Positions 1,473-46,249 are shown, counted from the stretch's first letter. The stretch is 64,000 nucleotides of DNA from an uncultured Clostridium sp. (GCA_900553015.1 USBY01000006.1:19999-83998); one strand, 5' to 3'. Numbers and translations: made by a program. Notes: generated by a model from the sequence alone, not told the origin.

Positions 1473-4400
1473 TTAATCTAAATCTTCATCATCATCAAGA
1501 TTATCTTTTGCTAAGTCATTACCATATAGGCCTTCATCATCTAAAAGTTCATCATTTTCAAATAGTTCATCACTATCTTCTTCTTTGTCTAAATCGATTT
1601 CTTCATCGTCAGCTTCTATATATGAACTTTCAATTTCGCTTTCATTTAGAACTAAATCTTCTTTCTTCTTTGCTTCATTATAGTCTATACCTTCGTCGAT
1701 ATCTTCTTTTAGTTCAATTTCTTTATTATCTTTTGTATATAATCTCATATCTAATCCTAATGATTGTAGTTCTTTTATTAATACTTTGAATGTTTCTGGA
1801 ATTCCAGGTTCTGGAACGTTTTCTCCTTTAACAATTGCTTCATAAGTTTTAACTCTTCCTACTACATCATCAGATTTAACTGTTAACATTTCTTGTAATG
1901 TATGAGCTGCACCATATGCTTCTAGTGCCCAAACTTCCATTTCTCCGAAACGTTGTCCACCGAATTGAGCTTTACCTCCTAATGGTTGTTGTGTAACTAA
2001 AGAATATGGTCCTGTTGAACGAGCATGTATTTTGTCATCTACTAAGTGATGTAACTTAAGCATGTACATAACTCCTACTGTAATTGGTTCAGCAAATGGA
2101 TCACCTGTTCTTCCATCATAAAGAATTGTTTTTCCATCTGGTGTATTTCCAGATTTAACTAATAATTCTTCTATTTCTTCAGATGTTGCACCATCAAAAA
2201 CTGGTGTTGCAACATTCCATCCTAATTCTTTTGCCGCTAATCCTAAGTGTACCTCTAAAACTTGACCTAAGTTCATACGAGAAGGAACACCTAATGGGTT
2301 TAATAGGATATCTACTGGTGTACCATCTGGCATAAATGGCATATCTTCTTCTGGTAATATTCTAGAAATTGTACCTTTGTTACCATGACGTCCAGCCATT
2401 TTATCACCAACTGATATTTTTCTCTTTGTTGCTATATAACATCTTATTATTTGGTTTACACCTGGTCCTAATTCATCTGAATTATCTCTTGTAAATATTT
2501 TTACATCTACAATTGTTCCAGCTTCACCATGTGGTACTTTAAGTGATGTATCTCTTACTTCACGAGCTTTTTCACCAAAAATTGCACGAAGTAATCTTTC
2601 TTCTGCTGTTAGTTCTGTTTCTCCCTTTGGAGTAACTTTACCAACTAATATGTCTCCAGGTCTTACTTCTGCACCAATTCTGATAATACCATTTTCGTCT
2701 AAGTCTTTTAAGCTATCTTCACCAACATTTGGTATATCTCTTGTTATTTCTTCTGGTCCTAATTTTGTATCACGACATTCGCAATCATATTCTTCTATAT
2801 GAATTGATGTAAATACATCTTCTTTTACTAATCTTTCATTTAAAAGTATAGCATCTTCGTAGTTATAACCTTCCCATGTAGAGAATGCTACTAATACGTT
2901 TCTTCCTAATGCCATTTCACCATTTTTAGTAGCTGGCCCGTCTGCTATTGCATCACCTTTTTTAACTTTTTCGCCTTTAACTACTATTGGTCTTTGGTTG
3001 ATACATGTACCACCATTTGTTCTTTTAAATTTATTTAATTTATGTGTTTTTGTTGTTCCATTATTATATTTAACAGTGATTGCTTCACCTGTAACTTTTT
3101 GGATTACACCATCATCTTCTGCTAAAATTAATATTCCAGAATCTTTTGCCGCTCTATATTCCATACCTGTACCAACGATTGGAGCTTCTGGCATAATTAA
3201 TGGAACTGCTTGACGTTGCATGTTTGCACCCATAAGCGCACGTTTTGCATCATCATGCTCTAAGAATGGTATCATGGCTGCACCAATTGAAACTAATTGT
3301 TTTGGTGAAACATCCATTCCTGTTACCATTTCTTTGTCTACTTCTATAATGTCATTTCTATATCTAACTTTAACTCTCTTATTTACAAATGTTCCATCTT
3401 CATTTAATGGTTCTTCAGCTTCTGCAATATAGTTACCATCTTCTACATCTGCACTCATGTATTCAACTTTATCTGTAACTGCATGTGTTTCTGGATCTAC
3501 TATTCTGTATGGTGTTTCTATAAATCCATATTCATTTATTTGTGCGAATGATGAAAGTGCAGATATAAGACCTATGTTTGGTCCTTCTGGTGATTCTATT
3601 GGACATAGTCTACCATAGTGTGTATAGTGAATATCACGAACTTCGAAACCTGCTCTTTCTCTTGAAAGACCTCCTGGTCCTAATGCAGAAATTCTTCTTT
3701 TATGTGTTAGTTCTGATAATGGGTTTGTTTGATCCATAAATTGTGATAATTGTGAACTACCAAAGAATTCTCTTATTGCTGATGTTATTGGTTTTGTATT
3801 AATTAATGTTTGTGGTGTTACTACATCTAAGTCTTGTATTGTCATTCTTTCACGAACAACTCTTTCTAATCTTGTTAAACCAATTCTAAATTGATTTTGT
3901 AATAACTCACCAACACAACGTATACGTCTATTTCCTAAATGGTCTATATCATCTATTTCTCCTAATTTATGGTCTAAGTTTAATAGGTAGTTAATAGATG
4001 CTAATATGTCTTCTGTTGTAACATGTTTTGGAACTAGTTCTTCATATCTTTGTTCTAATGCATGATGTAAATCTTTTTCTTCTGTATTGTCTAATATGCT
4101 TTTTAATACTTCATAATTTACCATTTCTTTAAAATGTAAGTCTGAAATATCTACATTTGTTACAAAATTATGAATATTTACTGTTCCATTTCCTATTATT
4201 TTTACTGGCTTATCTTCTACTCTTACTTCTACAACATTTATACCAGAATTTTGGATTTCGTCTGCTATATCTTTTGATATAACTTCTCCTGCTTCTACAA
4301 ATACTTCTCCTGTTTCTGGATTAACTATATCTGTATGTGCAATTTTTCCTTCAATTCTTGTTGCTAAACTTAATTTCTTATTGTATTTATATCTTCCTAC

Positions 4401-11116: not shown

Positions 11117-12250
11117 TTATCTTTTACCTAAGGTTAAATTTACCGTATTGGTATTATTCCCTCTTCTATACTCTATTTTTATAATTTCTCCTGGATTTTT
11201 AGTATAGATATATTCTTTTATATCATTCATAGTGTATATTAGTTTATCATCTATTTTTAATATTATATCACCTTTTATTAAACCGCAACTTGCAGCTGGA
11301 CTATTTGTAGTTACTTCCTCTATATATACACCGCTATCCAATTTAAAAGTTTTATCTATATATGGAATAATATTTTTATCATATCCAGAAATTCCAATAG
11401 AAGGTTCTTCAAAATTGCCTGTAGTACTATATTTTTCTATTATTGGTTTAACTACATTTATTGGTACTGCAAATCCAATTCCTTCTGCAGTATCTATTTT
11501 TAACGAATTTATTCCAATGACTTCACCCGCTGTATTTATTAATGGTCCTCCACTATTTCCAGGGTTTATTGTAGCATCTGTTTGAATTAAATCTGTCATT
11601 AGGACTTCTTCGTTATTTTCGGTAAATTTTAGTGTTCTTGCTTTTGCACTTATTATACCTGATGTTACAGTTCTTTCGAATTCATAGCCAATAGGGTTTC
11701 CAATTGCATATACTGTTTGTCCTGCTTTTACACTAGTTGAATCTCCTAATTTTACTGCTTTTAATCCTTCTAAGTTTATTTTTACTATACTTAAATCTAA
11801 AGTTGCATCTGCCCAAACAACATTAGCATCATATGTGTTTCCATTTTCTAATGTAACATAACAACTACTATATTTATCTCCAGAAACATGCTTATTTGTT
11901 ATAATATATCCATTTGATGATGCAATAACTCCTGTTCCTAGTCCTAGTTTTTCTATTCCGTCTTCTGTAAATATAGAGCTTCCCATCTCTTTAATTTTAG
12001 AAATTCCAACAACGCTATGGTTAACCTCTTCTATTATATCTTCTATTGTTGTATCTTGACTTGTAACATTTTGTACAGTTTGACTTGTTCTATCTACTTT
12101 TAAGTCCTCATTAATTTTATTTACATCTGTTCTGATATATAGTCGTATAAGTGATGCTATTAAAACTATAGTTAATATAATAATAAATGCTATGAAAAAA
12201 TTTTTTCCTATATTCTTTTTCTTTCTTTTTACTCTTCTATATTTTTGCAT
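11117..12250 (-). CDS. htrA: HtrA/DegP-family serine protease with N-terminal TM anchor and C-terminal PDZ domain
   Basis: Trypsin-like catalytic motifs including GNSGGPL. PDZ-like C-terminus. N-terminal TM segment. Confidence 0.9.
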   Translation of the reverse strand: MQKYRRVKRKKKNIGKNFFIAFIIILTIVLIASLIRLYIRTDVNKINEDLKVDRTSQTVQNVTSQDTTIEDIIEEVNHSVVGISKIKEMGSSIFTEDGIEKLGLGTGVIASSNGYIITNKHVSGDKYSSCYVTLENGNTYDANVVWADATLDLSIVKINLEGLKAVKLGDSTSVKAGQTVYAIGNPIGYEFERTVTSGIISAKARTLKFTENNEEVLMTDLIQTDATINPGNSGGPLINTAGEVIGINSLKIDTAEGIGFAVPINVVKPIIEKYSTTGNFEEPSIGISGYDKNIIPYIDKTFKLDSGVYIEEVTTNSPAASCGLIKGDIILKIDDKLIYTMNDIKEYIYTKNPGEIIKIEYRRGNNTNTVNLTLGKR

Positions 12251-12314
12251 AAAAAACCTCCTTTGGAAAACTTTTCTTAATATTTATGTTTTCCAAAAGG
12301 AAATTTTTAATACA

Positions 12315-14031
12315 TTATTTAATTTTTTCCAACTTGTTTATTTCTTGATATCTTTTTACTTTATGTGTTGTAGTTTTATCTAATGGCTTATCTGTAATTA
12401 CTATTTCTTTAATATGTTTATATGTTGGTAAATTTTTATTTATCTCTTTTATTTGTTTCCAAATAATTTGTTTATACTCATCCTCTGTTTTGTTTCCTAA
12501 TTCTTTTTCTATTAGATCTTTATTATACACAATTTTTGCACAAAGTAATGTATCTGTTATATCTTTGTCTCTTGCATATACTAAACTTTCATCTATATAA
12601 TCAATTTTATTAATTAAAAATTCTAATTCTTGAGGATATATATTCTTACCATTTCTTAGTACGATAATATCACTTTTTCTTCCTGTTACATATACAAAGC
12701 CATCTTTGTCTATATATCCATAATCGCCTGTATAGAACCATCCTTTTCTTAATACCTTTTTAGTTGCTTCTTTATTTTCATAATATCCAAGCATAATACT
12801 TGGTCCTTTAGCAACAATCTCCCCTACTCCATCTTTATCCTTTCCTTCAATTTTTACTTCTATATTGCATAAAGGTAAACCGACAGAGCCAGGTCTTTTT
12901 CTTTCATCACTTTCTGCAGTTATAACAGGAGATGTCTCTGTTAAGCCATATCCTTGTACTAAATCAATTCCAAGAGCATTGTAACCTTCTATCGTTTCTT
13001 TATTCATTGGTGCTGCCCCGTATAATACAACTCTTAAATATTCATCAAACTGTTTAAGAACTGCTTTAAATAAAAACTTTCTTGCATCTATATGATGCTT
13101 TAATAAAAAGCTTGAAAAACTTTTAAGTTTATTTATTAACTTTTCCTTACCACTATTTTCGATTCCTTTTTGAATCTTTTTATACATTGTTTCTAATACT
13201 AATGGAACTGCAACAAATACGCTAACTTGGAACTCTTTTAAATTATCTGCTATATGTCTTAGTCCCTCACAAAATGCAATTGTAGCACCACTATAAGTTC
13301 CATATAAAAATGTTATTGTACATTCAAAAGTGTGATGTATTGGTAAAAAAGAAAGTAATGTATCTGTTTTATATAATTTAACATGTTTAGCTATCGCACT
13401 AATATTTGAACAAATATTATTTTGCGATAACATTACTGCTTTAGGTTCATTGGTAGTACCTGATGTAAAAAGCATTATATACATCTCTTTATTATCAATT
13501 GTTACTTTATTGTATTTTTTCTTATTTGATTTTGCTATTTTTTTACCTTTATTAATAAAGTTTTCGAAATTTATTTCATCCTCGTCTGTGGTTTCATCCA
13601 TACAAATTTTATATTTTATTTGTAAACCATCATTTATTGCATTTGATATAGCATCAGTATATTTTTTCTCGTATACAACTACATCTACTTCACTTCTTTT
13701 TAACAGTTTTTCTATCTCTATATCTGTTAATGCTTTATCTAAAGGTACAATTACCTTACCGGCAGTTTCAGTTCCTAAATATGTAACGCACCATTCATAT
13801 CTGTTATTCCCTATAACAGCAATTCTTTTTGCATTTATAGATATAAGCGCTTCTGCCATTGCTTTTATATCTTCTGCAAACTTCTTATATGTTACTTCTT
13901 GTACTTCACCGAGCTTGTTTAAATTTAAATGCTACTTTGTCTCCAAATTTTTCATATCTTTTTACTAGCTCCCTGAAGTTTTTTATTGGTTTCCTTTCTA
14001 TGTCATTTTCTCTTTGTTTTTTCATAGACAT
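12315..14031 (-). pseudogene. Long-chain-fatty-acid--CoA ligase (AMP-binding enzyme) interrupted by a +1 frameshift near 13925-13935. N-terminal 42 codons (from ATG 14031 with RBS GGGGGA) are in one frame and the remaining 514 codons in another.
   Basis: Main ORF has the AMP-binding motif LFTSGTTNEPKAVMLS and a FadD-like C-terminus. The upstream frame encodes MSMKKQRENDIERKPIKNFRELVKRYEKFGDKVAFKFK, the expected N-terminus. Removing one base from the run tttaaatttaaa restores AFKLNKLGEVQEVTYKKF. This may be a sequencing indel rather than a true pseudogene. Confidence 0.6.
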
Positions 14032-14093
14032 TCCCCCAAATTCTCTTAGGATGCCTTTATTCTATAACAAATGGTTAAATTGTTCAATATTTT

Positions 14094-14122
14094 TGTTGAT
14101 TTTTAATTTCTTTAAGTATATA
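14094..14122 (+). promoter_or_regulatory. Sigma-A promoter for the NRPS operon: -35 TTGATT (14094-14099), 17-nt spacer, -10 TATAAT (14117-14122)
   Basis: Consensus hexamers, read from the sequence. Confidence 0.45.
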
Positions 14123-14143
14123 ATTTTTTCAAGATTAATATAG

Positions 14144-17100
14144 GTGATTTTTATGAACAATTTTAAATTTTATGATTTAACTATTCCACAAAAATCTATT
14201 TATTTAACCGAAGAATATGCATCTGGCAGTAGTGTTAATCTAATTGGTGGTAACATTATTATAGATGAACCGGTAAATTTAGATTTTTTGGAAAAAGCTT
14301 TAAATATTTTTGTAAAAAAGAATGACGCAATTAGAATTCGTATTCATATGGAAAATAACAAACCAAAGCAGTACATAACTCCATATGAACCTTTTACTGT
14401 AAGACGAGTTTTTATTAAAGATAAACAAGAATTAGAAGACCTTAGCTTACAGGCTGTTAATAAAAAATTTGATTTTTTTGATTCTAAACTATTTTGGTTT
14501 ACTCTTTTCAAGTTTGAAGATAATACTGGGGGATTAATCGTAACTTTTCACCATATCATTTCTGACGCTTGGACTATGAGTTTATTCGTAGACCAAGTAA
14601 TGAATATTTATTCAAAATTAATAGCTGGTGAAATTATTGATGATTCTGATAATAATTCCTATCTAGACTTTGCAAAAAGTGAACAAGACTATTTACATAC
14701 TCCAAGATTCCAAAAAGATAAAGAATTTTGGAATACTTTCTTTGACTCTGAGCCAGAGCCATCTTTAATTTCCGACCAAAAAGAAAAAATTATAGATACA
14801 ACTGCAAAAAGGAAAATATATATTCTAGATAAAGAATTGTATTCAAAATTAGATGCTTTTTGTAAAGAACATAACTGTTCTCTTTATACATTTTTTATGG
14901 CTATATATTCACTATATTTAGCACGTATTAATAATAATGATTTCTCTACAATTGGAACACCTATCTTAAATAGAACCAATTTTAAAGAAAAAAATACTTG
15001 TGGAATATTTGTAAGCACTCAAGCCTTTTTTATGAAAATGAATTATGAAGAGACTTTTACAGACTTCTTAAGAGAAGTTTTAACTAACCAAATGAAATTC
15101 TTTAGACATCAAAAATATCCATATTCTACATTACTAGAAGATTTAAAAGACAAATATAATATCTCATATAATTTATATGATTTAGCACTATCTTACCAAA
15201 ATGCTAGAATAGATAACACTGTAGCTAATATAAAATTTCATACAAACTGGTCTTTTAATAATAATTGTTCTGATACCTTACAAATACATTTTTATGATTT
15301 AGATGATACTGGAATAATTAATATTTATTATGATTATAAAGTTTCTAAATTTTCGGAAGAACAAATAGATAAAATTCATTCAAGAATTATGAATATGACT
15401 CTACGTGTATTAGATAATCCTTCTATCTTATTAAAAGATATAAGTATTATATGCGAGAAAGAAGAAGAACTTATAATAAATAAATTTAATAATTCTAATA
15501 TTGCTCATCCTAGAAATATAGGAATTCATGAGTTAATTGAAGATGTTGCTAGTCAGTATCCTAATAATACAGCAGTTACATATAATGGCGAGCATATAAC
15601 TTATAAAGAATTAATTGTTAATAGTACTAAGATTGCTACTAACCTTATCGAAAATGGTGTAAAAAAAGGAGATTGTGTAGCAGTTTTATTTAAAAATAAA
15701 GATATTAATCTTATTTGTTCATTATTAGGAGTTTTAAAAGCTGGAGCTGCTTTCTTAGCAATTTATCCTGATTATCCTAATGAACGAATTGAATATATAT
15801 TAGAAAACAGTAATAGCAAAATATTAATTACTGAACAATATTTTGACAACTTAAATATAAATTGTCCAAGATTATATATTAATAAATTAAAGGATTACCC
15901 AGCTATTGGTAAATTTCCTAAAGTATTACCAGATGACAATGCCTATATCATTTATACTTCTGGTTCTACAGGAAAGCCAAAAGGAACTATGCAATCACAT
16001 AATAATATTATTAATTTTGTATACTCTTTTAATCATTATTTAGATGATTCAATTACAGCTGATGACCAATTTTTATCTGTAACTAATATTTGTTTTGATG
16101 TTAGTATCGCAGAAATTTTTACAGCGCTTACTTTTGGTGGCAATTTACACTTATATAAAGATTTAAATAATAGTAGTATAGTGGAACTTGCTAAATATAT
16201 TTCGGTTAATAATATTACATTTGCATACTTCCCACCTGCCATGTTGCATTCTATATATGAGGAATTAGCTAAATATCCAAAATTAGCATTAAATAAAATA
16301 TTGGTTGGTGTAGAACCTATTAAAGCTTCTACTCTATCTAATTTTTATAACTTAAATCCTAATATGAAAATTGTAAATGGTTATGGACCATCTGAAACTA
16401 CTATTTGTTGTACAATGTATAAATTTAAAAATACTTTGCCACCTAATAGCATAACACCTATTGGAAGTCCAATTGGTAACTCTAAAATATTTATTTTGGA
16501 TAAATTAAAAAGATTAGTTCCAATTGGTAAAGTTGGCGAAATCTATGTACAAGGTGAATGTGTTGGTAATGGATATTTAAACAATCCAGAAAAAACAAAA
16601 GCATCTTTTGATTTAGAAAATAGAATATATAGAACTGGCGATTCTGCAAAATGGCTTCCAGATGGTTCAATAATGTTCGTTGGTAGAAATGATAATCAAA
16701 TAAAATATAGAGGTTATAGAATTGATTTAGGAGAAATTGAAAATACAATAAAAAATATTCACGGTGTAAAAAATTGTACAATTATATTAAATAAAGAATC
16801 TTCTGGCAATTCAACTCTAGTTGCATTTGTAATTATAGATTCATCAATAATAGATCAAGAATCATTTAGAAATATACTAGTTAATAAGTTGCCTCATTAT
16901 ATGATTCCAAATCAGTTTGAATTTTTAGATAAATTTCCTTTAAATACAAATGGAAAAATCGATAGAAAAAAATTATTAGCACATATAAATGATTTAGATA
17001 TAGAAAATTATGAGGCTCCTAATAACGATATAGAAAAAACATTGTGTTCTATATGGGAAAAAGTTTTAGGAAAATCTAAGATTGGAATAAAAGATAATTT

Positions 17101-18421
17101 CTTTTCTTTAGGAGGGGATTCACTAGATTCTATAAAGATTTCTGTAGAAGCTGCAAAATATGATATAAAATTATCTGCACAAGATTTTTATAGATATCCT
17201 ACAATTAAATTATTAGAAAAATATGCACTAAATGCACAAGTCCCTATTCCTAGTACAATTAATACAGTGGATTACGAAACTTTTCAAATAGAAAAAAGTT
17301 CTCCAAGTTATATAAATGGAGATATTTTATTAACAGGTGCTACAGGATTTTTAGGGGCTCATATTCTTTGTGAATTATTAGAAAAAACTAATTATACAAT
17401 ATATTGTTTAGTAAGGGGAGAATCTTTAGATAGTTCATCTAAAAGATTAAAAGGAAGACTACAATACTACTTTAAAGATAAATTAGATCATTATTTTAAT
17501 AATAGAATTATAGTTATTAATGGTGACTTTACTAAAGAGCACTTAGGCCTTATTTATAATGCATATAATGAGTTGTGTTCAAATATACAGTGTATAATTA
17601 ATGCTGCAGCAACTGTTAAGCATTTAGGAGATTATGCTGTTTTTGAAAAAACAAATGTATTAAGTGTAAAGAATTTAATAGCAGTTTGTAAAGATATTCC
17701 AAACTGCCAATTAGTACATATTTCTACGCTTTCAGTCGCAGGCAGTAATGATCCTAATGGTTCATGTAATTTTACAGAAAAGGATTTATTTGTTAACCAA
17801 GATATTAGTGAAAATATTTATATAAAAACTAAATTTGAGGCAGAAAAGTTACTATTAGAAGAAAACCAAAAAGGTCTTCCTATAACAATATTCCGTTTAG
17901 GAAATATTACTTGGAGAAGTTATGATGGTATTTTCCAACATAATCTAGAGGAAAATTTATTTTTTAATTTAATACAGTTTATTATAAAAGCAAAAAAAAT
18001 TCCTCTAGAGTTAAAAGATAAAACATTTAATATAAGTCCTGTTGATGAATGCGCAAGTTTAATAGTATCTATTCTACAAAATGATAATAAATATAATGTA
18101 TATCATATCTATAATCAAAATGAATTAACTTTACAAGAAATTGTTAACTTATTAAATAATTTAGGTTTTAACATACAATTTACTACTGATAATTCATTAA
18201 AAGATTTAGAAGATTCTACTGAAAATATTAATTTATCTTCTTACTTATATAAATTATTAACTAGCAAACACGAAGCAAGCAATATCAAAGTATCTAGTCC
18301 TTATACAACTAAGATATTAAAAGAAATTAATTTTAATTGGTCTAATATAAATACTAATTATTTTAAACACGGATTGGAGGAAAATTTAAATGAAAAAAAC
18401 TTTGGACAAAAATTGGGCTAA
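14144..18421 (+). CDS. Single-module non-ribosomal peptide synthetase with C-A-T-R architecture (condensation, adenylation, thiolation, terminal NAD(P)-dependent thioester reductase), 1425 aa
   Basis: C-domain HHxxxDG motif (HHIISDAWT). A-domain core motifs YIIYTSGSTGKPKG, NGYGPSETT, YRTGD, GRNDNQIKYRGYRIDLGEIE. PCP motif FFSLGGDSLDSI. R-domain Rossmann motif LLTGATGFLGAHIL. Confidence 0.9.
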   Translation: MIFMNNFKFYDLTIPQKSIYLTEEYASGSSVNLIGGNIIIDEPVNLDFLEKALNIFVKKNDAIRIRIHMENNKPKQYITPYEPFTVRRVFIKDKQELEDLSLQAVNKKFDFFDSKLFWFTLFKFEDNTGGLIVTFHHIISDAWTMSLFVDQVMNIYSKLIAGEIIDDSDNNSYLDFAKSEQDYLHTPRFQKDKEFWNTFFDSEPEPSLISDQKEKIIDTTAKRKIYILDKELYSKLDAFCKEHNCSLYTFFMAIYSLYLARINNNDFSTIGTPILNRTNFKEKNTCGIFVSTQAFFMKMNYEETFTDFLREVLTNQMKFFRHQKYPYSTLLEDLKDKYNISYNLYDLALSYQNARIDNTVANIKFHTNWSFNNNCSDTLQIHFYDLDDTGIINIYYDYKVSKFSEEQIDKIHSRIMNMTLRVLDNPSILLKDISIICEKEEELIINKFNNSNIAHPRNIGIHELIEDVASQYPNNTAVTYNGEHITYKELIVNSTKIATNLIENGVKKGDCVAVLFKNKDINLICSLLGVLKAGAAFLAIYPDYPNERIEYILENSNSKILITEQYFDNLNINCPRLYINKLKDYPAIGKFPKVLPDDNAYIIYTSGSTGKPKGTMQSHNNIINFVYSFNHYLDDSITADDQFLSVTNICFDVSIAEIFTALTFGGNLHLYKDLNNSSIVELAKYISVNNITFAYFPPAMLHSIYEELAKYPKLALNKILVGVEPIKASTLSNFYNLNPNMKIVNGYGPSETTICCTMYKFKNTLPPNSITPIGSPIGNSKIFILDKLKRLVPIGKVGEIYVQGECVGNGYLNNPEKTKASFDLENRIYRTGDSAKWLPDGSIMFVGRNDNQIKYRGYRIDLGEIENTIKNIHGVKNCTIILNKESSGNSTLVAFVIIDSSIIDQESFRNILVNKLPHYMIPNQFEFLDKFPLNTNGKIDRKKLLAHINDLDIENYEAPNNDIEKTLCSIWEKVLGKSKIGIKDNFFSLGGDSLDSIKISVEAAKYDIKLSAQDFYRYPTIKLLEKYALNAQVPIPSTINTVDYETFQIEKSSPSYINGDILLTGATGFLGAHILCELLEKTNYTIYCLVRGESLDSSSKRLKGRLQYYFKDKLDHYFNNRIIVINGDFTKEHLGLIYNAYNELCSNIQCIINAAATVKHLGDYAVFEKTNVLSVKNLIAVCKDIPNCQLVHISTLSVAGSNDPNGSCNFTEKDLFVNQDISENIYIKTKFEAEKLLLEENQKGLPITIFRLGNITWRSYDGIFQHNLEENLFFNLIQFIIKAKKIPLELKDKTFNISPVDECASLIVSILQNDNKYNVYHIYNQNELTLQEIVNLLNNLGFNIQFTTDNSLKDLEDSTENINLSSYLYKLLTSKHEASNIKVSSPYTTKILKEINFNWSNINTNYFKHGLEENLNEKNFGQKLG

Positions 18422-20456
18422 ACTGATTTTAGTGTATAACCTTGCCTGTATAATTGTTTCATTATTCTTCTATAAATTGGTGCCTACATTTTTATGCTAC
18501 CCACCAAATTCTATAGATAATGAATTTCAAATGGTTATAAATGGACTAACTTACACACAGCAATATGTAATGATAGTTCTATGTAGTTTATTAATGGAAA
18601 ATATTATATTAATACATAGTTTAAGAAAAGCAAATAAAATAAGAGCAGAACTGTTACAATCACCTAAAAAGGATGCTACAAAGTTATACTATAAACTTTC
18701 TAAAACAATATCTAGAATACCTAATTTAATATATATTGTACAAATAATAGTTCCTGTTATTATGATTGCAATAACATTTAGTTTGTTACAAGGTGAATTG
18801 TTTATTACTTTAAAAGTATGCTTACTATTCTTTTCTATGTTAACATTAATAGCAAGTATCTCATATATATTCTCTAAAAAGACTTTCCAAAATATTTTAG
18901 TAGATATATATCATGAAGTTTCTGGCTATTCTAATATAGATAGTAATTTTAATAAATATGTAAAAAGATCAAGTATAAAAAATGTTATTTTTATTGTAAC
19001 AATACCTATGTTTATAGTTACTGCACTTTTAATTGCTTTATCTGGCTATTCTTCTATTATAAAAGAAACTGGTGATTTAACTTACGACTTATATAATCAG
19101 GAATTAAACTCATTAGAGCTTCCTGCACAAACGGAAGAAAATCCTTTAGATGTATTAACTAACGCTCTTTCAGCAATTGAATATAAAAAAGCTAAAGTAG
19201 ATTCATATTTTATTATTGCTCCAGATGGCAATATAACAACTTCTAATGGTGAGGAATTATCAATATTCTTTACAAAATATATGAACGATTTAGCATCTAC
19301 TCAACCTGAAAAAAATAGAACCTATGACTTTTATGGTGATGACTCTCAAGGAGTATTTAAAAGTATTACTATAAACGGGGAAACATGGACTATAGGTATA
19401 CGTTATAATTTAGTGTCTAACACTATTTTAATCGGATTATTATCAATTTTCGCAGTATTATTTATAATTAATATTATTTTATTAAGATATTTCGCAAATT
19501 ATATTGCAAATGAAATAAAAAGGGTTTCTGATGCATTACTAAAAATTGTAGAAAATAAAAATATCGACCATAGTGCTAGATTGCCAGTTGTTTCTAATGA
19601 CGAAATTGGTGACTTGGTAAATGCATTTAATGAGATTCAAGACCTTACAAAGAATAATATAAATCAAATACATAATAATCAAAACATGCTTATAGAAAGA
19701 GAACGTCTCGCATCTTTAGGACAATTAATAGGTGGTATTGCTCATAACTTAAAAACACCTATAATGTCTATATCCGGTGCTGCAGAAGGGCTTACAGATT
19801 TAGTTACTGAATATGATAAATCTATTGGCGATAAAGATGTAACAGAACAAGATCATCATGATATTGCAAAAGATATGACATCTTGGATTGAAAAAATTAA
19901 AAAATATACAGAATATATGTCTGATGTTATAACTGCAGTTAAAGGACAAGCTGTTAATTTCTCTTCTACAAGTAATATTCATTTTTACATGGATGAATTA
20001 CTAAAAAATATTGATATATTAATGAAACACGAATTAAAAAATGCTTTAGTTTCACTTAATATAATAAATAATGTACCTTCAAGTACCTATATTAATGGTG
20101 ATATAAACTGCTTGGTACAAGTAATAAATAATATGATTTCAAATGCTATCCAATCATATAATGGTAAGCCAAATCAAAAAATAGATTTAATATTAAATGT
20201 TAAAGATAATAAAATAATAATACAAGTAAAAGATTATGGACCTGGTATTCCTAAAGAAGTTCAAGAAAAACTATTTAAAGAAATGATTACCACAAAAGGA
20301 AAAAACGGAACAGGACTTGGTTTATTTGTATCATATTCTACTATTAAAGCTCATTTTAATGGTGATATCAAATGTGATTCAGATAAAACTGGTACTACAT
20401 TTTCAATTATTATTCCTTTATCAAAAACTGATAATTCTAATAAAACTGGTAAATAA
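18390..20456 (+). CDS. Membrane sensor histidine kinase (multi-TM sensor region with extracytoplasmic loop, HAMP, HisKA, HATPase_c). The start codon overlaps the NRPS 3' end by 32 nt.
   Basis: H-box ERERLASLGQLIGGIAHNLKTP. ATP-lid GTGLGLFVS. RBS GGAGGA lies inside the NRPS coding sequence. Confidence 0.9.
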   Translation: MKKTLDKNWAKLILVYNLACIIVSLFFYKLVPTFLCYPPNSIDNEFQMVINGLTYTQQYVMIVLCSLLMENIILIHSLRKANKIRAELLQSPKKDATKLYYKLSKTISRIPNLIYIVQIIVPVIMIAITFSLLQGELFITLKVCLLFFSMLTLIASISYIFSKKTFQNILVDIYHEVSGYSNIDSNFNKYVKRSSIKNVIFIVTIPMFIVTALLIALSGYSSIIKETGDLTYDLYNQELNSLELPAQTEENPLDVLTNALSAIEYKKAKVDSYFIIAPDGNITTSNGEELSIFFTKYMNDLASTQPEKNRTYDFYGDDSQGVFKSITINGETWTIGIRYNLVSNTILIGLLSIFAVLFIINIILLRYFANYIANEIKRVSDALLKIVENKNIDHSARLPVVSNDEIGDLVNAFNEIQDLTKNNINQIHNNQNMLIERERLASLGQLIGGIAHNLKTPIMSISGAAEGLTDLVTEYDKSIGDKDVTEQDHHDIAKDMTSWIEKIKKYTEYMSDVITAVKGQAVNFSSTSNIHFYMDELLKNIDILMKHELKNALVSLNIINNVPSSTYINGDINCLVQVINNMISNAIQSYNGKPNQKIDLILNVKDNKIIIQVKDYGPGIPKEVQEKLFKEMITTKGKNGTGLGLFVSYSTIKAHFNGDIKCDSDKTGTTFSIIIPLSKTDNSNKTGK

Positions 20457-20469
20457 TTAAAGATATTAA

Positions 20470-20509
20470 AAGCGAAGGTAAATTGGCAAATTTTACCTTC
20501 GCTTTTTTT
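20470..20509 (+). terminator. Rho-independent terminator after the kinase gene (AAGCGAAGGTAAA...TTTACCTTCGCTT plus T7)
   Basis: 13-bp stem and U-run, read from the sequence. Confidence 0.65.
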
Positions 20510-20583
20510 GTATTTTTTTTGACTTTTTTCTTGCTTTTATAGATTTTTATTTATATAATTTCTATATTAGGAGGTCTGTTATT

Positions 20584-21612
20584 ATGAGAAAGAATCAAGT
20601 TACATCCAAAAGTGCTGATTTTAAAATAATCGCTGTAGATGATGAACAAGGAATTTTAGATTCATTATCTATATTTATGAAAAGATCTGGCTATGATTTC
20701 GTTGGCATAACAGATCCTATAGAAGCTATAAATCGCGTAAAAACAGAACATTTTGATTTAATGGTACTAGATTTTATTATGGACCCAATTCATGGTGACA
20801 AAGTTGTCGAAGAAATTAGAAAATTTAATAAAGATTTATATATTCTTCTTTTAACTGGTCACAAAGATTTGGCTCCACCACTAGAAACTATTCACGAACT
20901 TGATATTCAAGGATATTGCGAAAAAAGTGATAAGTTTGACCAATTATTATTATTAATAGAATCTGGATTAAAATCTGTAAATCAAATGAGAACAATTACT
21001 AAAATGAATGAGAATCTAGAAAAGTCTTATATGGATAGTATAGAGATTTTAAGACATACTGTAGAAGCTAAAGACCCTTATACTAGAGGACATTCAGATA
21101 GGGTTTCTGAATACGCAGTTCTATTAGGGAAAAAACTTAAATTACCTAACGAAGACATTGAAAAATTAAAAATCGGTGGTCTTTTTCATGATATAGGAAA
21201 AATTGGTATTCCAGACAGCATCCTTCTAAAAGAATCTAAATTAACAGATGAGGAATATTTAAAAATCAAAGAGCATCCAGTAATTGGATATAATATTTTA
21301 GAAAATGCTGACATGTTCAAAAATATTCTAGATATCATAAAATATCATCACGAAAGATTTGACGGAAATGGATACCCAGAAAAATTAGCAGGAACAAATA
21401 TCCCTTATCTTGCTAGAATCACTTCTATAGTTGATAGTTTTGATGCTATGACATCTAGAAGAAGTTATAGAGATTCTTTACCAATGGACGTTGTAAAATC
21501 TGAAATATTACAAAATTTTGGTTCTCAGTTTGACCCAGAAATAGGTATAGTTTTCCTAGATATTTTAGATAATGATTTTAATTCTATTAAACAAATACAA
21601 GAAAAGTACTAA
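20584..21612 (+). CDS. Response regulator with REC domain and HD-GYP c-di-GMP phosphodiesterase output domain
   Basis: REC acidic pocket (VDDEQ...LMVLDFIMD). HD-GYP signature HHERFDGNGYPE plus GGLFHDIGK. Own promoter TTGCTT-17-TATAAT (20531-20559). Confidence 0.9.
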   Translation: MRKNQVTSKSADFKIIAVDDEQGILDSLSIFMKRSGYDFVGITDPIEAINRVKTEHFDLMVLDFIMDPIHGDKVVEEIRKFNKDLYILLLTGHKDLAPPLETIHELDIQGYCEKSDKFDQLLLLIESGLKSVNQMRTITKMNENLEKSYMDSIEILRHTVEAKDPYTRGHSDRVSEYAVLLGKKLKLPNEDIEKLKIGGLFHDIGKIGIPDSILLKESKLTDEEYLKIKEHPVIGYNILENADMFKNILDIIKYHHERFDGNGYPEKLAGTNIPYLARITSIVDSFDAMTSRRSYRDSLPMDVVKSEILQNFGSQFDPEIGIVFLDILDNDFNSIKQIQEKY

Positions 21613-21656: not shown

Positions 21657-22595
21657 ATGGTTTTAACTGCTTCAGAAACAAGAAAGCAAGCCAGAGAGTC
21701 TTTAAAAGGTAAATGGGGAACTGTAGTTTTAATTACATTAATATTTGTAGCATATGCTTTTATAGTTGGATTACTTTCTTCTATTCCTTTTTTAGGATTT
21801 TTAATTTCTATTGCAGCTATTGTCATTGATATTCCAATACTATATGGTTTTATGATGACTATGATGAAATTAAAAAGAGGAGAAAATGTAGGATATTTTG
21901 ATTTCTTCAAAGATGGGTTTGCTAATTTTAAAAGAGCATGGTGCGTTACAGGAAGATTACTTTTAAAAATGATTGCTCCATTAATATTAATAATAGTTGC
22001 AATTGTTATAATGATCGTTTCTGTTATTGCATCTTTAGCAACTGCATTTGCAGTAGGAATAAGCTCTTCTACTTCTGTTTTAGGTGGTGCTCTAGTTGGT
22101 GCTAGTGCTTTAACAATAGTAGCTTATATTGTAATACTTGCTGCATACATATGGCTTTTTATAAAGTCATTATCATATGGTTTAGGTATGTATCTTGCAA
22201 TTGATAATCCAAATATGAAACCACTTGATTGTGTTAACAAAAGTAAAGAACTTATGGATGGAAATAAAGGTCGTTTATTCTGCCTATATCTTTCATTTAT
22301 TGGATGGATTGCTCTAGCTGCTGTATTATCTTTAATACCTTTTGTTGGATGGATAGCAACATTAGCTGGAACTTTACTATTAGCACCATATATTGAATTT
22401 GCAGCAATAATATTCTATGAGAACAGAGCTGGTATAGATTTTTCTGCTACAGTTGCTGAAGGTACTGTATCTTCAGAAGAAAACACAGAAGGAAATACAC
22501 CAAAAACAAATGAAATAAAAGAACAATCTGGTTCTCAAGATGTAAAAGCAGAAATCGTAGATATACCAAATTTAGACCAAAATAAAGATGAATAA
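21657..22595 (+). CDS. DUF975-family integral membrane protein with C-terminal Glu/Thr-rich tail
   Basis: N-terminus ...SETRKQARESLKGKWGTVVLITLIF followed by multiple TM helices, typical of DUF975. Confidence 0.7.
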   Translation: MVLTASETRKQARESLKGKWGTVVLITLIFVAYAFIVGLLSSIPFLGFLISIAAIVIDIPILYGFMMTMMKLKRGENVGYFDFFKDGFANFKRAWCVTGRLLLKMIAPLILIIVAIVIMIVSVIASLATAFAVGISSSTSVLGGALVGASALTIVAYIVILAAYIWLFIKSLSYGLGMYLAIDNPNMKPLDCVNKSKELMDGNKGRLFCLYLSFIGWIALAAVLSLIPFVGWIATLAGTLLLAPYIEFAAIIFYENRAGIDFSATVAEGTVSSEENTEGNTPKTNEIKEQSGSQDVKAEIVDIPNLDQNKDE

Positions 22596-22604
22596 TCGTT
22601 TTTT

Positions 22605-22639
22605 GGAACGTCCCTCGGGATTTGGGGACGTTCTTTTTT
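22605..22639 (+). repeat. Copy a of the dispersed GGGATTTGGGGACGTTCC hairpin repeat family, variant form GGAACGTCCC-tcgggattt-GGGGACGTTC followed by T6. Acts as terminator of the DUF975 gene.
   Basis: 10-bp inverted repeat and U-run read from the sequence. Shares the core CGGGATTTGGGGACGTTC with 7 other sites. Confidence 0.7.
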
Positions 22640-22647
22640 CCCTTTTA

Positions 22648-22674
22648 GGGATTTGGGGACGTTCCTCAAATCCC
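22648..22674 (+). repeat. Copy b of the repeat family: GGGATTTGGGGACGTTCCTCAAATCCC
   Basis: Stem GGGATTT/AAATCCC enclosing the conserved loop GGGGACGTTCC. Confidence 0.7.
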
Positions 22675-22702
22675 GATTTTTTATTTATAATTCTAAAGCA
22701 AA

Positions 22703-22736
22703 AACTTCTTATACATATTGTATAAGAAGTTTTTTA
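22703..22736. terminator. Bidirectional terminator hairpin (AACTTCTTATAC-ATAT-TGTATAAGAAGTT) between the convergent DUF975 and tex genes
   Basis: Palindrome flanked by A-run and T-run. Confidence 0.55.
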
Positions 22737-28308: not shown

Positions 28309-31300
28309 CTATAAAACTTTCTTCTTTATTATTACAATTCCTGCTACTAATACTCCTAAACTAACTATAGCAATTACTATTAATGTTAACTGTCTGTTTG
28401 CACCAAATGGTACTACAAATGTTAATACTTCTGCTTTTCCAGTATCAACCTCTTCTATATTTTTAAGAGTTGATGGATATGTATTACCTGGAATTTCTAC
28501 TACTTCTTTATTCGTAGTATCTTCATAGTATGGTCTTCTACCATTAGCTATAGTCAATCTTATAACTTCTGCTATATTTTGTATTTCATCGGCATTTGAT
28601 GTGTCTTCTGTTCTTGCAATAACCCTTGTAAGTGTCATAACATCTTCCAATGATATATAGTCATCACTTCTTAAGTATTGAGTTGCTTCACCTGGTAAAT
28701 TAGTTAATAATATTTCATCCACTGAATTTTTAGCTTCATCAAAAGCACCAGGCTCTAATAATGTTCCCCTATAATTATCTGGAAGTTTTATAGATTCATC
28801 TCTATTTGCAATTACTTGCCATAAATCAGCACTTTGTATAGTTTTTCCTGCAACTGCATATGAACCGTTTCCTGGATTTATAGCATATGAAATCGTTCCG
28901 TATTGTTTTGTTAGTTCTACATCATATTGTAATGAATTTGGTATATAATCAATTATTGCTGTAGCTACAATTGTATTTTCGGTATTTCTATTTGAAACAA
29001 CTCCTGTATAATAATATGATCTATCATTATAATCTAACTCGCTATGATTTCTTAAAGTTAAAGAATATCTTACAGTTAATGTAGAACCATATAGTAAGTT
29101 TTCATCTACAGTACCTTGTACTAATCCGCTAGATGTCATATTTCCTCTATTATTATATTTGTTTTCTTTCCATGTTAAGTTAGAAGTTGACTGATTTGTA
29201 TCGAATATAGTTGTACCATCTGTAGCTGTTAATTTAATATGTGATACATTCTTTTCTAATACAATTTTTGTTCTTGGTCTCTCTATTATTCCGAAATCCA
29301 CATTTTGTACTTTATATGATGTCTTTTCATTTTTCAAGTATTCAATTTCCATTGCCATTTTGGCTGTATTTGCAGTCATATATGTGTTCTCTGCTAATGT
29401 TGATAATAAGTTAGAATTACTTGTTCTTGTTGCATTTAATACAGTAGCAACATCATATTTATAATCTTTACTATATGAATTTACAGTCTCTCTTCTAGAG
29501 TAATCATCTGCTGCATCATTCTTACGTGGTGAAGTATTCTTATACCAATATAAATCTGAGTAATCTCCTTCTGTATAAATTGTAGATTTATAATCTTGAC
29601 CTGTATACATTTGATTATTCTTTTGAGGATTTACTAAACATTCATAATCACCATAAGTAAATTTAATTAGATAATCTCCTGGGATATATCCAGATAATGT
29701 GTAGCTTCCATCCTCGTTACTTCTCGTTTCTACTTTATTTAAAGTATCAACATCATCGTTATTTTGACAAAGTAATTCTACTTTTACTTTATTTACAATA
29801 TTTTCTCCACTTGCATATTGTCCATCACCAATTCTTTCATTATGATCTAATTTATCTTTAAGTGGTAAATCCTCGAATACAGTACCTGATATTGTTCTTT
29901 CTGTATCATCTCTTATAAGTTTTAATCCTGGTGCAACATCTGCATCATCTTCAAATACCGCACTACTGCGTTTTGTTTTTTCTGTACCATCTAGGCTTTG
30001 GTAAGCATTAGTCTTTGATTGTTTTACAAAGTTTTGAACATTAGAAGATGTTGGGTTCATGTTGTCTGGTGTTGAGTCTATATCTAATAAACCTGCAACA
30101 GCTCCTGCATTTGTTATTTTATTACCATTTAAGTCATATCTATCTGATGTATAAGTATTTCTATAACCTGCAATTTCTGCAAAGTTTTCTTCTAGTGTCT
30201 CTCCTGTTGATAGTAATTCTCTTAAGGTATCGTATGAAACTTTGTATTGCATAAAGATCCATTTCTTATCTGTTATTCCTTCATTTGCTATACCTGTTGT
30301 ATGAATCTTATTATATGTCTTACCATTTCCAGATACACTACCTGAAGAACTCCAATTTATGGCTTTTCCATTCTCATCATAAGAATTTACTAATTGATAT
30401 GATGTATCTGCATAATCATTTAAGTCTGTTATATATCCTGTAATTTTACCAACTGATTGGTTCTTTATTTGTATTTTATATGTTACATATACTTGTAATT
30501 TATCTGGATCAGAATCATACTGTGCAGCTGATTTATATTGTAAGTCTGTTTTTCTTAGTTTTCTTTCATAATCAGGTATATCTGTACCTCTTATCGTTAC
30601 TTCTAAATCTTCTCCTGCACCATTATAATCATATGTATGGCTCTTACCATTTATTGTTACATCAACTTTTACTAAGTCTTTTCTTAAGTTCATATCAAAT
30701 TCTTCTCTATCTTTTATACCAAAGTTAACGTTTTGTGTCTGTTCTGTAGTATTTGCTGCATTATATAATAATAAGTTTTGTAATCCATTTGAGCCTGTAT
30801 ATGCATAGATCATAAACATTTCATTGTTAGTATCATCTCTATCTGGATATTTATGATTTGCATCTACTTGTGCAAATTTATTATTAAATGAATTTCTATT
30901 TTGTGTTCCATCTGTTGCATATGATCTTTCTGCAACTGTTGTATCTACCTTATTATTACCTGTTCCAGTATATTTCTTTTGAGTTTGATATGTTGTTGGT
31001 TCATAAAGTTGTCCATTATATTTAAATCTTACATAATAACTCTTAGATGGATCTAGTTTGTCAAACTCATAGTATCCATTGTTATTTGTACTTGTTTGCG
31101 CTACTTGTTTTCTTGATGAATCAAATAATACTACTTCTATTCCTGGTAACATTTTATCGCCAGTACTTAAAATACCATCTTCACTTCCATCTTTTTGTGC
31201 TAAATTATCTTTAAATACCTTACCTGCTATTTTTAAAGTTAATGTTACTGGTATTCCATTATTACTAATAGTACTTTTATCTCCTGAAGCATTTATTTTA

Positions 31301-37753: not shown

Positions 37754-37933
37754 AGGAACACCCCTCATAATTTGCATAAATATATATAATAAAATATAAC
37801 AATATAAAGCTTTTAGTTCAATATACTTATTTTTTGTCTTTTTTTATCGTATTAGATGCCTTTACGGATGTTCATTTCATTAAATTATTACAATTCCATT
37901 AAATATTTATTTTCTTTTTATTACACACAAAAA

Positions 37934-41788: not shown

Positions 41789-41864
41789 TGGTGCACCACC
41801 GGGGGGTCGAACCCCGGACCTTCTGATTAAGAGTCAGCTGCTCTACCAACTGAGCTAGTGGTGC
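41789..41864 (-). tRNA. tRNA-Lys (anticodon CTT), 76 nt with encoded CCA
   Basis: Minus-strand sequence GCACCACTAGCTCAGTTGGTAGAGCAGCTGACTCTTAATCAGAAGGTCCGGGGTTCGACCCCCCGGTGGTGCACCA folds as a cloverleaf. Anticodon loop CTCTTAA. Upstream promoter TTGACA at 41914-41919. Confidence 0.9.
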
Positions 41865-43777: not shown

Positions 43778-43909
43778 AAATATACTCCCCTTAAATCTCT
43801 TATAATATATTAAAAGGTATATCACAATATTACTATATTTTCAATATTTTTTTCGACAGTAGTAGACTTTTTTCAAATGCTTTTATATAATGCTAACGAG
43901 GTAGAAAAT

Positions 43910-44494
43910 ATGTTAGATATGTTAGGTAATTTAATAAAAAGTATTAGAACAAAAAAACATATGACAAAGACAAGTATTGCTAAACAAATAGGGGTAGATA
44001 CTGGCTATTTAACACATATAGAAAATGGTGATAGGAAACCTACAGTTAAAGTTTTACAAGAAATATGCAAGGCAATAGATGTTCCTTATCAAAAGTTTTT
44101 CGCTGCATATAATCATAAAATACCACAAGAAGCAATAGATTACGAAGTTTTTAAACACACTGCTGAAGACAGGATTCTTTTAGTAGATGATATAAATGAC
44201 TTACATTTTATGAAATGTCCACCAGGTCTTAATTCTGTTTCCTTTGGTATTCGACTTAATGATGACTCTATGGATAAAATCTATGACAAATATTCATATG
44301 TATTTGTAGATTTCGGGGCACCAGTAAAACCCCAAGATATTGGACTTTTTTATTACAATGGACAAATTTTGGTAAGAAGATTATTTATCTATGGAAAAAA
44401 TCATATTTCGTTATATCCAGATAATCCTAAATACCCTAAAATTCGAGTAAAAGAAAAAGACACATTTTATATAATTGGAAAAATTGTGCAATAA
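43910..44494 (+). CDS. CI/LexA-like transcriptional repressor: N-terminal XRE-type HTH plus C-terminal S24 peptidase-like domain with the catalytic Lys replaced by Arg. Start reassigned to ATG 43910 (RBS GAGGTAG).
   Basis: HTH MTKTSIAKQIGVDTGYLTHIENGDRKPTVKVLQEI. S24-like NDDSMDK...GQILVRRLF aligns with LexA GDSM...VKRL. Confidence 0.75.
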   Translation: MLDMLGNLIKSIRTKKHMTKTSIAKQIGVDTGYLTHIENGDRKPTVKVLQEICKAIDVPYQKFFAAYNHKIPQEAIDYEVFKHTAEDRILLVDDINDLHFMKCPPGLNSVSFGIRLNDDSMDKIYDKYSYVFVDFGAPVKPQDIGLFYYNGQILVRRLFIYGKNHISLYPDNPKYPKIRVKEKDTFYIIGKIVQ

Positions 44495-46046: not shown

Positions 46047-46122
<76 letters not shown>

Positions 46123-46133
46123 ATATGGTCATA

Positions 46134-46208
46134 TGGTGACCCGTACGGGAATCGAACCCATGTCTCCGCCGTGAAAGGGCGATGTCTTAACCGCTTGACC
46201 AACGGGCC
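46134..46208 (-). tRNA. tRNA-Glu (anticodon TTC), 75 nt with CCA
   Basis: GGCCCGTTGGTCAAGCGGTTAAGACATCGCCCTTTCACGGCGGAGACATGGGTTCGATTCCCGTACGGGTCACCA on the minus strand. Anticodon loop CTTTCAC. Confidence 0.9.
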
Positions 46209-46249
46209 ATAAATATAAATGAATACTAAAGATTAGTTTAGTATTCATT

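Follow-up and report, generated by a model that had tools for sequence, protein, structure and literature searches.

The locus described here lies in a stretch of DNA of 64,000 nucleotides (nt) from an uncultured Clostridium sp. (GCA_900553015.1 USBY01000006.1:19999-83998), read on one strand and with a base composition of about 27% G+C; this whole stretch is called the window, and all positions are counted from its first letter. The locus comprises a gene for a nonribosomal peptide synthetase (NRPS), a gene for a sensor histidine kinase and a gene for a response regulator with an HD-GYP domain, all in the same orientation, together with a divergent long-chain acyl-CoA ligase gene. According to an original prediction, made from the sequence alone, the product of the NRPS would be a small-molecule signal, sensed by the linked two-component system, which in turn would control cyclic di-GMP (c-di-GMP). 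The NRPS has condensation (C), adenylation (A), thiolation (T) and thioester reductase (R) domains, and the features of the locus are listed below, with protein lengths in amino acids (aa), ribosome-binding sites (RBS) and transmembrane (TM) helices.

11117-12250, minus strand: HtrA-like serine protease (Trypsin_2 and PDZ, by Pfam), the conserved left flank, outside the variable cassette
12315-14025, minus strand: long-chain acyl-CoA ligase gene, frameshifted (Pfam/NCBIfam, reading frames)
14026-14152, no strand assigned: divergent intergenic region, with a sigma-70-like TTGATT-17-TATAAT match at 14096-14124 (plus strand) and the NRPS RBS GGTGA at 14143-14147
14153-18421, plus strand: single-module C-A-T-R NRPS, probably of 1422 aa (Pfam/NCBIfam, motifs, codes, PDB relatives)
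about 14165-15475, plus strand: NRPS C domain, with HHIISDA
about 15539-16957, plus strand: NRPS A domain, with YTSGSTGKPKG, YRTGD and NGKIDRK; Stachelhaus code DVAYLGGICK
about 17039-17224, plus strand: NRPS T domain, with the carrier serine motif GGDSL
about 17324-18361, plus strand: NRPS R domain, with GATGFLG (GxxGxxG) and YIKTK (YxxxK)
18390-19589, plus strand: histidine kinase, type-specific sensor half (aa 1-400), with six TM helices, an extracytoplasmic domain and the start of HAMP
19590-20456, plus strand: kinase core, with the rest of HAMP, DHp and HATPase_c (Pfam, invariant columns)
about 20468-20509, plus strand: hairpin and T-run resembling an intrinsic terminator (from sequence; fold dG -20.5)
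20584-21612, plus strand: REC-HD-GYP response regulator (REC and HD_5; Pfam/NCBIfam)

The open reading frame (ORF) of the NRPS runs from a GTG at 14144 to 18421 and specifies 1425 aa, the length first given for it. The ORF and its C-A-T-R domains are indeed present, but the start is likely the ATG at 14153, which is favoured by the GGTGA in front of it and by the resulting length of 1422 aa, which all database copies share. Pfam recognises Condensation, AMP-binding (+C), PP-binding and NAD_binding_4 domains, and the catalytic motifs, including HHxxxD, are kept in 68 of 68 related NRPSs. The enzyme had been called an orphan; it is instead a member of a very large conserved family. For the A-domain codes we indexed residues on a GrsA fragment, which itself returned the published code DAWTIAAICK. 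The core Asp235 and Lys517, whose absence the original prediction would have read as the mark of an inactive enzyme, are both found together with all core motifs. As the DVAYLGGICK pocket contains no charged residue, the substrate predicted from the code is probably a large hydrophobic amino acid.

The closest non-orthologous relatives of this NRPS are C-A-T-C-A-T-R enzymes of about 2470 aa; the window enzyme itself has one module, not the two modules of the gut dipeptide-aldehyde family. The orthologue of its C domain in the bimodular relatives is their N-terminal C1 domain (40-49% identity) and not the internal C2 (22-26%); for its A and T domains, module 2 is the closer match in two of the three relatives compared. 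The best PDB relatives of the R domain are 6vtj and AusA. The NCBIfam model for MxcG could be aligned over aa 11-1346 of the NRPS, with a score of 528 bits against a cutoff of 2300.

The kinase (688 aa, HAMP-HisKA-HATPase_c, 18390-20456) starts with an ATG at 18390 and is preceded by the RBS GGAGG at 18376-18380, within the NRPS gene, the stop codon of which (18419-18421) gives an overlap of 32 nt with the start of the kinase. Both the overlap and the internal RBS had been announced in the original prediction and could be located, as could the terminator placed behind the kinase. The AlphaFold 2 model of the kinase, with a predicted local distance difference test (pLDDT) score of 78.5, has six TM helices, HAMP, DHp and CA domains, with a small alpha/beta extracytoplasmic domain at aa ~252-340. 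The H-box histidine is H452 in GGIAHNLKTP (19743-19745), the ATP-binding boxes are present and, as Pfam finds neither a REC nor an HPt domain, the kinase is not a hybrid. Two sensor motifs survive in all the single-module types discussed below: YPPNSIDN..Q in the first external loop (aa 37-58, 18498-18563) and YDFYGDDSQG in the extracytoplasmic domain (aa 312-321). Outside these motifs, identity between sensor types is only about 25%, which suggests a shared scaffold carrying type-specific contacts.

The regulator has its acceptor aspartate, D63, at 20770-20772, an HD in FHDIGK and the motif HHERFDGNGYP. Over 43 loci, the complete HD-GYP set of metal ligands (E..H..HD..H..HHE..D and GYP) is invariant, and so are the DD, D63, T91 and K114 of the receiver; the NCBIfam model of NosR-family phosphodiesterases scores 198 bits on it, under the cutoff of 400. 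Thus kinase and regulator together present an H-box histidine with ATP boxes, a receiver aspartate and adjacent genes, as is expected of a two-component system. The regulator gene has the RBS AGGAGG at 20569-20574 and a perfect TATAAT -10 box at 20554-20559. A scan of the sequence gave 78 promoter matches, with 86 expected by chance from shuffled controls; promoter assignments at this locus are therefore matches to a consensus only, the independent promoter of the regulator in the original prediction included.

Relatives of the locus were obtained by scanning one genome per species with the kinase alignment, which gave 80 loci, the most distant of them 42% identical in the kinase, and neighbouring genes were located by tblastn with the window proteins. 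In 71 loci the upstream DNA is long enough to judge, and in 70 of these an NRPS of about 1400 aa ends at the start of the kinase, the exception (L044) being a truncated NRPS match; of 69 loci, 67 have the REC-HD-GYP regulator on the downstream side of the kinase. Tex is usually found beyond the regulator, and HtrA on the upstream side. For nearly all types, NRPS and kinase are spaced by -47 to +27 nt, and usually by no more than 20 nt, which is consistent with an operon arrangement, and the gap between kinase and regulator measures 75-550 nt and includes a hairpin with a T-run in 29 of 44 loci. Single loci depart from this order: in L079 the regulator has been relocated upstream on the other strand (2731-3777, minus), insertions of 2.9 kb (L040, 11971-14844) and 1.25 kb (L057, 11971-13224) separate kinase and regulator, and in four metagenome-assembled genomes (MAGs; L003, L040, L043 and L085) the regulator is in two pieces, by frameshift or assembly error.

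Exact copies of the window NRPS, kinase and regulator were found in dozens of human gut metagenome assemblies. The 90% cluster of the kinase includes a member labelled Candidatus Merdicola sp. (Clostridia incertae sedis at NCBI), and the related loci come from MAGs labelled uncultured Clostridium sp. or Clostridia bacterium, CAG:245 and CAG:508 among them, with human, chicken, rabbit and roe deer as hosts. Among the matches there was no cultured carrier, and a query with the 7TM-PAS kinase described below also gave only MAG or metagenome proteins.

Using the 43 complete loci, we compared pairwise identities between the proteins of the locus. The identity of the NRPS follows that of the whole kinase (r = 0.92, Mantel p <= 5e-4) and most closely that of its sensor, aa 1-396 (r = 0.95); the corresponding values are 0.48 for the kinase core, 0.37 for the regulator and 0.22 for Tex. 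The kinase core is correlated with Tex (r = 0.76) and with the regulator (r = 0.81), and we count the latter value toward a cognate kinase-regulator pair. When the proteins are sorted into types, NRPS and sensor types are concordant, with an adjusted Rand index of 0.86 (permutation p = 2e-4), against 0.10 for NRPS types and Tex clusters. The boundary is seen in 228 pairs of loci that have Tex identity of at least 86% and NRPSs of different type: the identity of the kinases stays at 0.2-0.35 as far as aa ~400 and rises within HAMP to 0.75-0.95, the level of same-type pairs, and regulator identity is flat at 0.7-0.96. Between types, the divergence of the NRPS is even over all its domains, and in the sensor the TM helices and the extracytoplasmic domain have diverged as much as the cytoplasmic loops.

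The identities of NRPS and sensor follow each other at every hierarchical level, and no decoupled NRPS/sensor pair was found among 65 loci. Sensors of the same type are 62-68% identical even in backgrounds as distant as 77-79% in Tex, and sensors of different types are 24-25% identical in backgrounds of 98-99%. Purifying selection acts on both proteins within types, as seen from ratios of nonsynonymous to synonymous substitution rates (dN/dS) of 0.13-0.22 (NRPS) and 0.09-0.18 (sensor). Synthesis gene and sensor thus vary together, in discrete types, against a kinase core, regulator and background that are conserved, which is the pattern of pherotypes.

The A-domain code is distinct for each NRPS cluster and, inside a cluster, identical or different at one or two positions, which gives at least eight single-module specificity classes. 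The code of the window, DVAYLGGICK, is shared by L001, L005, L006 and L009-L011, with the variant DVGYLGGICK in L003; the other codes are DIFQMAGIFK, DVYYGGMVGK, DIFLIGLVYK, DFWNIGMVHK, DLTKIGEVGK, DILQMGMIWK, DITQMGMVWK and DSELTAEVCK. In published code tables, DFWNIGMVHK corresponds to the canonical code for Thr, DLTKIGEVGK to that for Asn and DILQ.G.IWK to that for Gly. NRPSs of the DIFLIGLVYK type (for example L056, L076, L084, L025 and L058) have NHK instead of NGK in motif A10 and NIDSL or HIDSL at the T domain, and none of these alleles has the ligase gene.

Multi-module versions of the NRPS are also found. Three loci (L086-L088) have NRPSs of about 2470 aa with two modules in the same slot, with HtrA upstream in each of them and the ligase in two, followed by the kinase, the regulator (with one gene between in two loci) and, further downstream, Tex. 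Their kinase has a sensor of another architecture, HisKA_7TM and PAS, on a core 61-66% identical to aa 400-677 of the window kinase, and their regulator is 68-71% identical to that of the window. The same slot in L112 (219-9998, plus) holds a three-module NRPS of 3259 aa, 2 nt in front of a 7TM-PAS kinase, and in L113 (229-7680, plus) a two-module NRPS lies 16 nt upstream of such a kinase, so that the 7TM-PAS sensor accompanies a multi-module NRPS in five of five loci. L113 is rearranged and has a guanylate kinase gene and unrelated genes, not the regulator, after the kinase.

Exchange of types could be followed in near-isogenic genomes, of which three independent sets of pairs were found. In the first, the window was compared with L078, which has no ligase and whose NRPS has the code DLTKIGEVGK, and the replaced segment is:

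12309-20509, no strand assigned: cassette replaced relative to L078, with ligase, NRPS, kinase and terminator (blastn, sliding identity)

As far as 12308, a position between HtrA and the ligase, the two sequences are 96% identical in nt. Beyond this point, the ligase, the NRPS and the kinase sensor cannot be aligned and the kinase core is at 70-85% nt, until identity jumps to 97-100% at about 20510, directly after the terminator. The NRPS proteins are 34% and the sensors 25% identical, against 97-98% for regulator and Tex. Likewise, L021 and L080 are 99% identical in Tex and regulator, 37% in the NRPS and 24% in the sensor, with similarity returning inside the kinase at aa ~430 (96% nt). L017 has its ligase in common with L024, L027, L052 and L064, at 85-91% nt (91% with L024), and relative to them only the NRPS with kinase aa 1 to ~390 is replaced. 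In these other pairs the replaced unit, NRPS and kinase aa 1 to ~390-430, is therefore smaller than in the case of L078 and, because the ligase itself is shared in the comparisons with L017, the minimal exchanged unit is the NRPS with the sensor half of the kinase.

The divergent acyl-CoA ligase gene of the original prediction is present, but as a frameshifted pseudogene. An insertion of 1 nt near 13908-13912 has left an N-terminal fragment of 39 aa (13906-14025), MKKQRENDIERKPIKNFRELVKRYEKFGDKVAFKFKQAR followed by a stop, in a frame other than that of the remaining 514-aa ORF (12315-13859), whereas the orthologues are uninterrupted and have 569-577 aa. Identical fragments of 514 and 39 aa occur, beside intact NRPS and kinase genes, in at least nine independent human-gut metagenome assemblies of the lineage (L095-L111); this rules out a sequencing error and makes the split a real mutation, fixed in the lineage. 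A programmed frameshift is unlikely, the context GCT-CGG-TGA being without a slippery site. As the dN/dS against the intact copy of L006 is still 0.09, the inactivation is recent. The ligase is present in 41 of 67 loci and absent in 26, and in four loci it lies directly upstream of the NRPS in the same orientation. In L005 and L011, which are of type 2, the ligase ORFs are also truncated at the N-terminus and, together with the frameshift in the window lineage, this makes it appear that the ligase has been lost repeatedly.

With moderate confidence, we read the locus as a polymorphic, pherotype-like signalling cassette of synthase and receptor, placed in a fixed slot (HtrA ... Tex) of Candidatus Merdicola-like uncultured gut Clostridia and feeding a predicted HD-GYP (c-di-GMP) output. 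The NRPS would load one amino acid, which the N-terminal C domain would probably N-acylate, and the terminal reductase would free an aldehyde or, after a second reduction, an alcohol. The co-transcribed kinase would perceive this small lipophilic product through its type-matched sensor half with six TM helices, and its conserved core would phosphorylate the adjoining and separately transcribed REC-HD-GYP regulator, which in turn would hydrolyse c-di-GMP. NRPS and sensor would be inherited and exchanged as one unit, with kinase core and regulator in common, so that related lineages would use different amino-acid-derived signals, each with its own receptor. The starting points of this reading (gene structure, catalytic motifs, adjacency, operon spacing, co-diversification, boundaries, type codes and purifying selection) are observed directly; from them we infer the structure of the product, its binding by the kinase, phosphotransfer and c-di-GMP hydrolysis. 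A signal made by the NRPS and sensed by a linked two-component system acting through HD-GYP, as first proposed, is thus strongly supported by the conserved adjacency and spacing, by the co-diversification with type-specific codes and by the change of sensor with module number.

Several observations weigh against this reading. Every biochemical and expression step in it is a prediction from sequence. By comparison with PDB entries, the C domain is closer to elongation-type (LCL) C domains (TycC6, 7.6e-32) than to the solved starter C domains (RzmA, 2.7e-10), although its orthology is with the N-terminal C1 of the bimodular relatives, and the ligase proposed as acyl supplier is a pseudogene in the window lineage and missing from 26 of 67 loci. 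Neither an exporter nor a phosphopantetheinyl transferase was found in the cassette. Pfam detects no DNA-binding domain in the regulator, so an autoinduction loop is not visible; a GGDEF motif (by regular expression) and a c-di-GMP riboswitch (by Rfam) were not found in the 64-kb window, a region too small to inform either way. The nine contexts with an identical regulator protein all carry the window-type cassette, so polymorphism is seen only between very close lineages and not within one. To our knowledge, the sensor domains of all kinases evolve faster than the kinase cores. Finally, the co-inheritance could be mechanical, because NRPS and sensor adjoin without conserved DNA between them and recombination can resolve only in the kinase core or the flanks.

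This last point leads to the explanation that competes best, although we hold it to be unlikely: linkage without function, in which the NRPS would be a gene for an outward-directed metabolite under diversifying selection, such as a protease-inhibiting aldehyde similar to the dipeptide aldehydes of gut Clostridia, and the kinase would sense an unrelated cue, its fast-evolving sensor half simply being carried along, since exchanges could resolve only in the conserved DNA of the kinase core, HtrA or the ligase. The breakpoints of the exchanges do coincide with the points where DNA similarity begins, the closest NRPS relatives, the enzymes of about 2470 aa, belong to a kind that reportedly yields protease-inhibiting dipeptide aldehydes, and the regulator, not being a transcription factor, would not control the NRPS directly. 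Mere linkage is nevertheless hard to reconcile with a gap of at most 20 nt, or an overlap, kept in every type over some 70 species, nor does it account for the lack of any decoupled pair (0 of 65 loci) or for sensors that remain 62-68% identical within a type at Tex 77-79% and fall to 24-25% between types in 98-99% backgrounds. Purifying selection on the sensor within types, and a wholly different sensor architecture with the multi-module NRPSs in five of five loci, also argue against it.

Less probable again, in our estimation, is self-monitoring or self-protection, in which the kinase would detect the cell's own reactive aldehyde, or envelope damage, and adjust physiology via the HD-GYP regulator, the matched types being a sign of product recognition with no quorum sensing involved. 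The same co-variation of NRPS and sensor would be expected in that case, an exporter was not found in the cassette and a conserved HtrA-type envelope protease adjoins it; HtrA, however, belongs to the conserved background and not to the cassette, and long-lived discrete types are, as in agr and com, more typical of cell-cell recognition, even if computation by itself would not tell self-monitoring from signalling. A coupling between the proteins, in which type-specific cytoplasmic loops of the kinase would bind the NRPS or control it (holding it at the membrane, for instance) and the co-variation would mark their interface and not a ligand, seems to us highly improbable: translational coupling or the overlap may make both proteins together and the co-variation spans the whole sensor half, cytoplasmic loops included, but TM helices and extracytoplasmic domain diverge just as strongly, NRPS divergence is spread evenly and not on one surface, and we know of no precedent.

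Some features of the surroundings remain to be described. To the right of the regulator lies one further gene of the same orientation:

21657-22595, plus strand: DUF975 membrane protein (Pfam)

This gene and the REC-HD-GYP gene had both been predicted to follow the kinase and both are in place, but DUF975 occurs only in the close relatives of the window and a few other loci, and so was rejected as a part of the conserved unit. Tex follows on the opposite strand, convergent with DUF975, and between the two there are three overlapping strong hairpins with T-runs at 22605-22734 (plus), in one of the few stretches that are poorly conserved relative to L078 (37% identity over 22610-22668). On the left, the HtrA-type PDZ protease is the constant neighbour of a predicted aldehyde-making cassette; aldehydes are a classic class of protease inhibitors, and a functional link between the two is speculative. 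Elsewhere in the window, two neighbouring genes at 28309-32940 and 32930-37777 (minus) encode giant proteins of 1543 and 1615 aa with SdrD_B or CarboxypepD_reg-like folds, which are probably surface adhesins; the length of the first differs between samples (1543 aa, and 1702 aa in L104). They would be plausible targets of c-di-GMP, although a link was not found. A tRNA gene at 41792-41864, a cluster of three tRNA genes at 46050-46325 and, near them, genes for a LexA/S24-type helix-turn-helix repressor (43877-44494) and a TraG/TrwB-type coupling protein (46872-48557) may be what is left of an integrated conjugative element.

The original prediction had called the arrangement an undescribed pairing, and indeed, in the full-text literature searched, neither an NRPS-kinase-HD-GYP unit nor NRPS pherotypes nor the NRPSs of TANB77, CAG-508 or Merdicola are described. 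Signalling by a dedicated synthase and a sensor kinase is itself well known (agr, com, CqsA/S, Rpf); as far as this literature and general knowledge go, what is new is an NRPS as synthase, the exchange of type-matched NRPS and sensor, and an HD-GYP output in Clostridia. The carriers are small-genome gut bacteria and, if the proposed reading is right, R-terminated gut NRPSs, so far read mainly as sources of host-protease inhibitors, may have a physiological role in signalling. The single-module classes and the multi-module versions would then form a natural experiment on the recognition of amino-acid-derived lipids or aldehydes by kinases, and the model predicts that swaps of the sensor re-programme signal specificity. 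A wider proposal, to which we give somewhat less than even chances, is that the R-terminated NRPSs with one, two and three modules are autoinducer synthases of a non-ribosomal quorum sensing with many dialects in abundant human-gut Clostridia, each of them linked genetically to its cognate sensor on a common kinase core and HD-GYP output, and that at least a part of the gut peptide-aldehyde family evolved mainly for self-signalling and not for the inhibition of host proteases; this would also be the first pherotype polymorphism for a signal made by an NRPS.

Among known systems, the gut peptide-aldehyde NRPSs are similar to the window NRPS as enzymes. Dipeptide-aldehyde NRPSs of gut Clostridia with protease-inhibiting products were reportedly described by Guo and colleagues in Cell in 2017, and ruminopeptin is said to have been treated by Schneider and Balskus in 2018. 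The products of such NRPSs in gut Clostridia are protease-inhibiting aldehydes that cyclise to pyrazinones and are isolated as such (PMC12327764). The window NRPS resembles this family, and AusA of Staphylococcus aureus, in being R-terminated and from gut Firmicutes, and its R domain is like that of AusA; it differs in having a single module. The literature read discusses the family as producers of protease inhibitors and makes no mention of a constant association with a sensor kinase and an HD-GYP regulator. MxcG, of myxochelin synthesis, has the same C-A-T-R domain order, as do other single-module synthetases, but the window NRPS scores far below the cutoff of that family, and aryl carrier and dihydroxybenzoate genes are absent here. 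PvfC-type A-T-R synthases use reductive amino-aldehyde release to make signalling molecules in Pseudomonas; unlike the window locus, neither the MxcG nor the PvfC-type systems have a linked kinase.

CqsA/CqsS of Vibrio and LqsA/LqsS of Legionella are similar in gene logic. In these systems an enzyme makes a lipophilic alpha-hydroxyketone from an amino acid and an acyl-CoA, and a 6-TM kinase encoded by the adjacent gene senses it within the membrane. The window locus likewise has a single synthase gene beside a 6-TM kinase (six TM helices according to the AlphaFold 2 model). The synthases are however not homologous, one being pyridoxal-phosphate-dependent and the other an NRPS, and CqsS is a hybrid kinase that feeds a phosphorelay; we know of no comparable set of specificity types for CqsA/CqsS or LqsA/LqsS.

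Two other families share with the locus either its genes or its mode of variation. The Rpf system of Xanthomonas (rpfB-rpfF-rpfC-rpfG), which uses a diffusible signal factor (DSF), brings together a synthase dedicated to the signal, a fatty acyl-CoA ligase, a sensor kinase with multiple TM helices and a REC-HD-GYP protein which breaks down c-di-GMP, and the window locus has the same gene logic, including the REC-HD-GYP regulator. The Rpf synthase, RpfF, is however an enoyl-CoA hydratase and not a C-A-T-R NRPS, and RpfC is a hybrid kinase, whereas the kinase here is without REC or HPt domains; moreover, the present system belongs to a Gram-positive Clostridium, its ligase is dispensable and it has many types of synthase and sensor. 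In this last respect it resembles the staphylococcal agr specificity groups, together with the pherotypes of streptococcal comCDE and Bacillus comQXPA: a hypervariable signal gene and kinase sensor half stand beside a conserved core and regulator, and discrete types cross species boundaries and are exchanged between close relatives. It differs in that the predicted signal would be non-ribosomal and built from one amino acid (two or three in the multi-module alleles) and not a ribosomal peptide, in that a processing enzyme like AgrB or ComQ is absent, and in that the output is an HD-GYP protein and not a LytTR or other DNA-binding regulator. As synthase, kinase type and output all differ, the cassette belongs to neither the Rpf nor the agr/com family.

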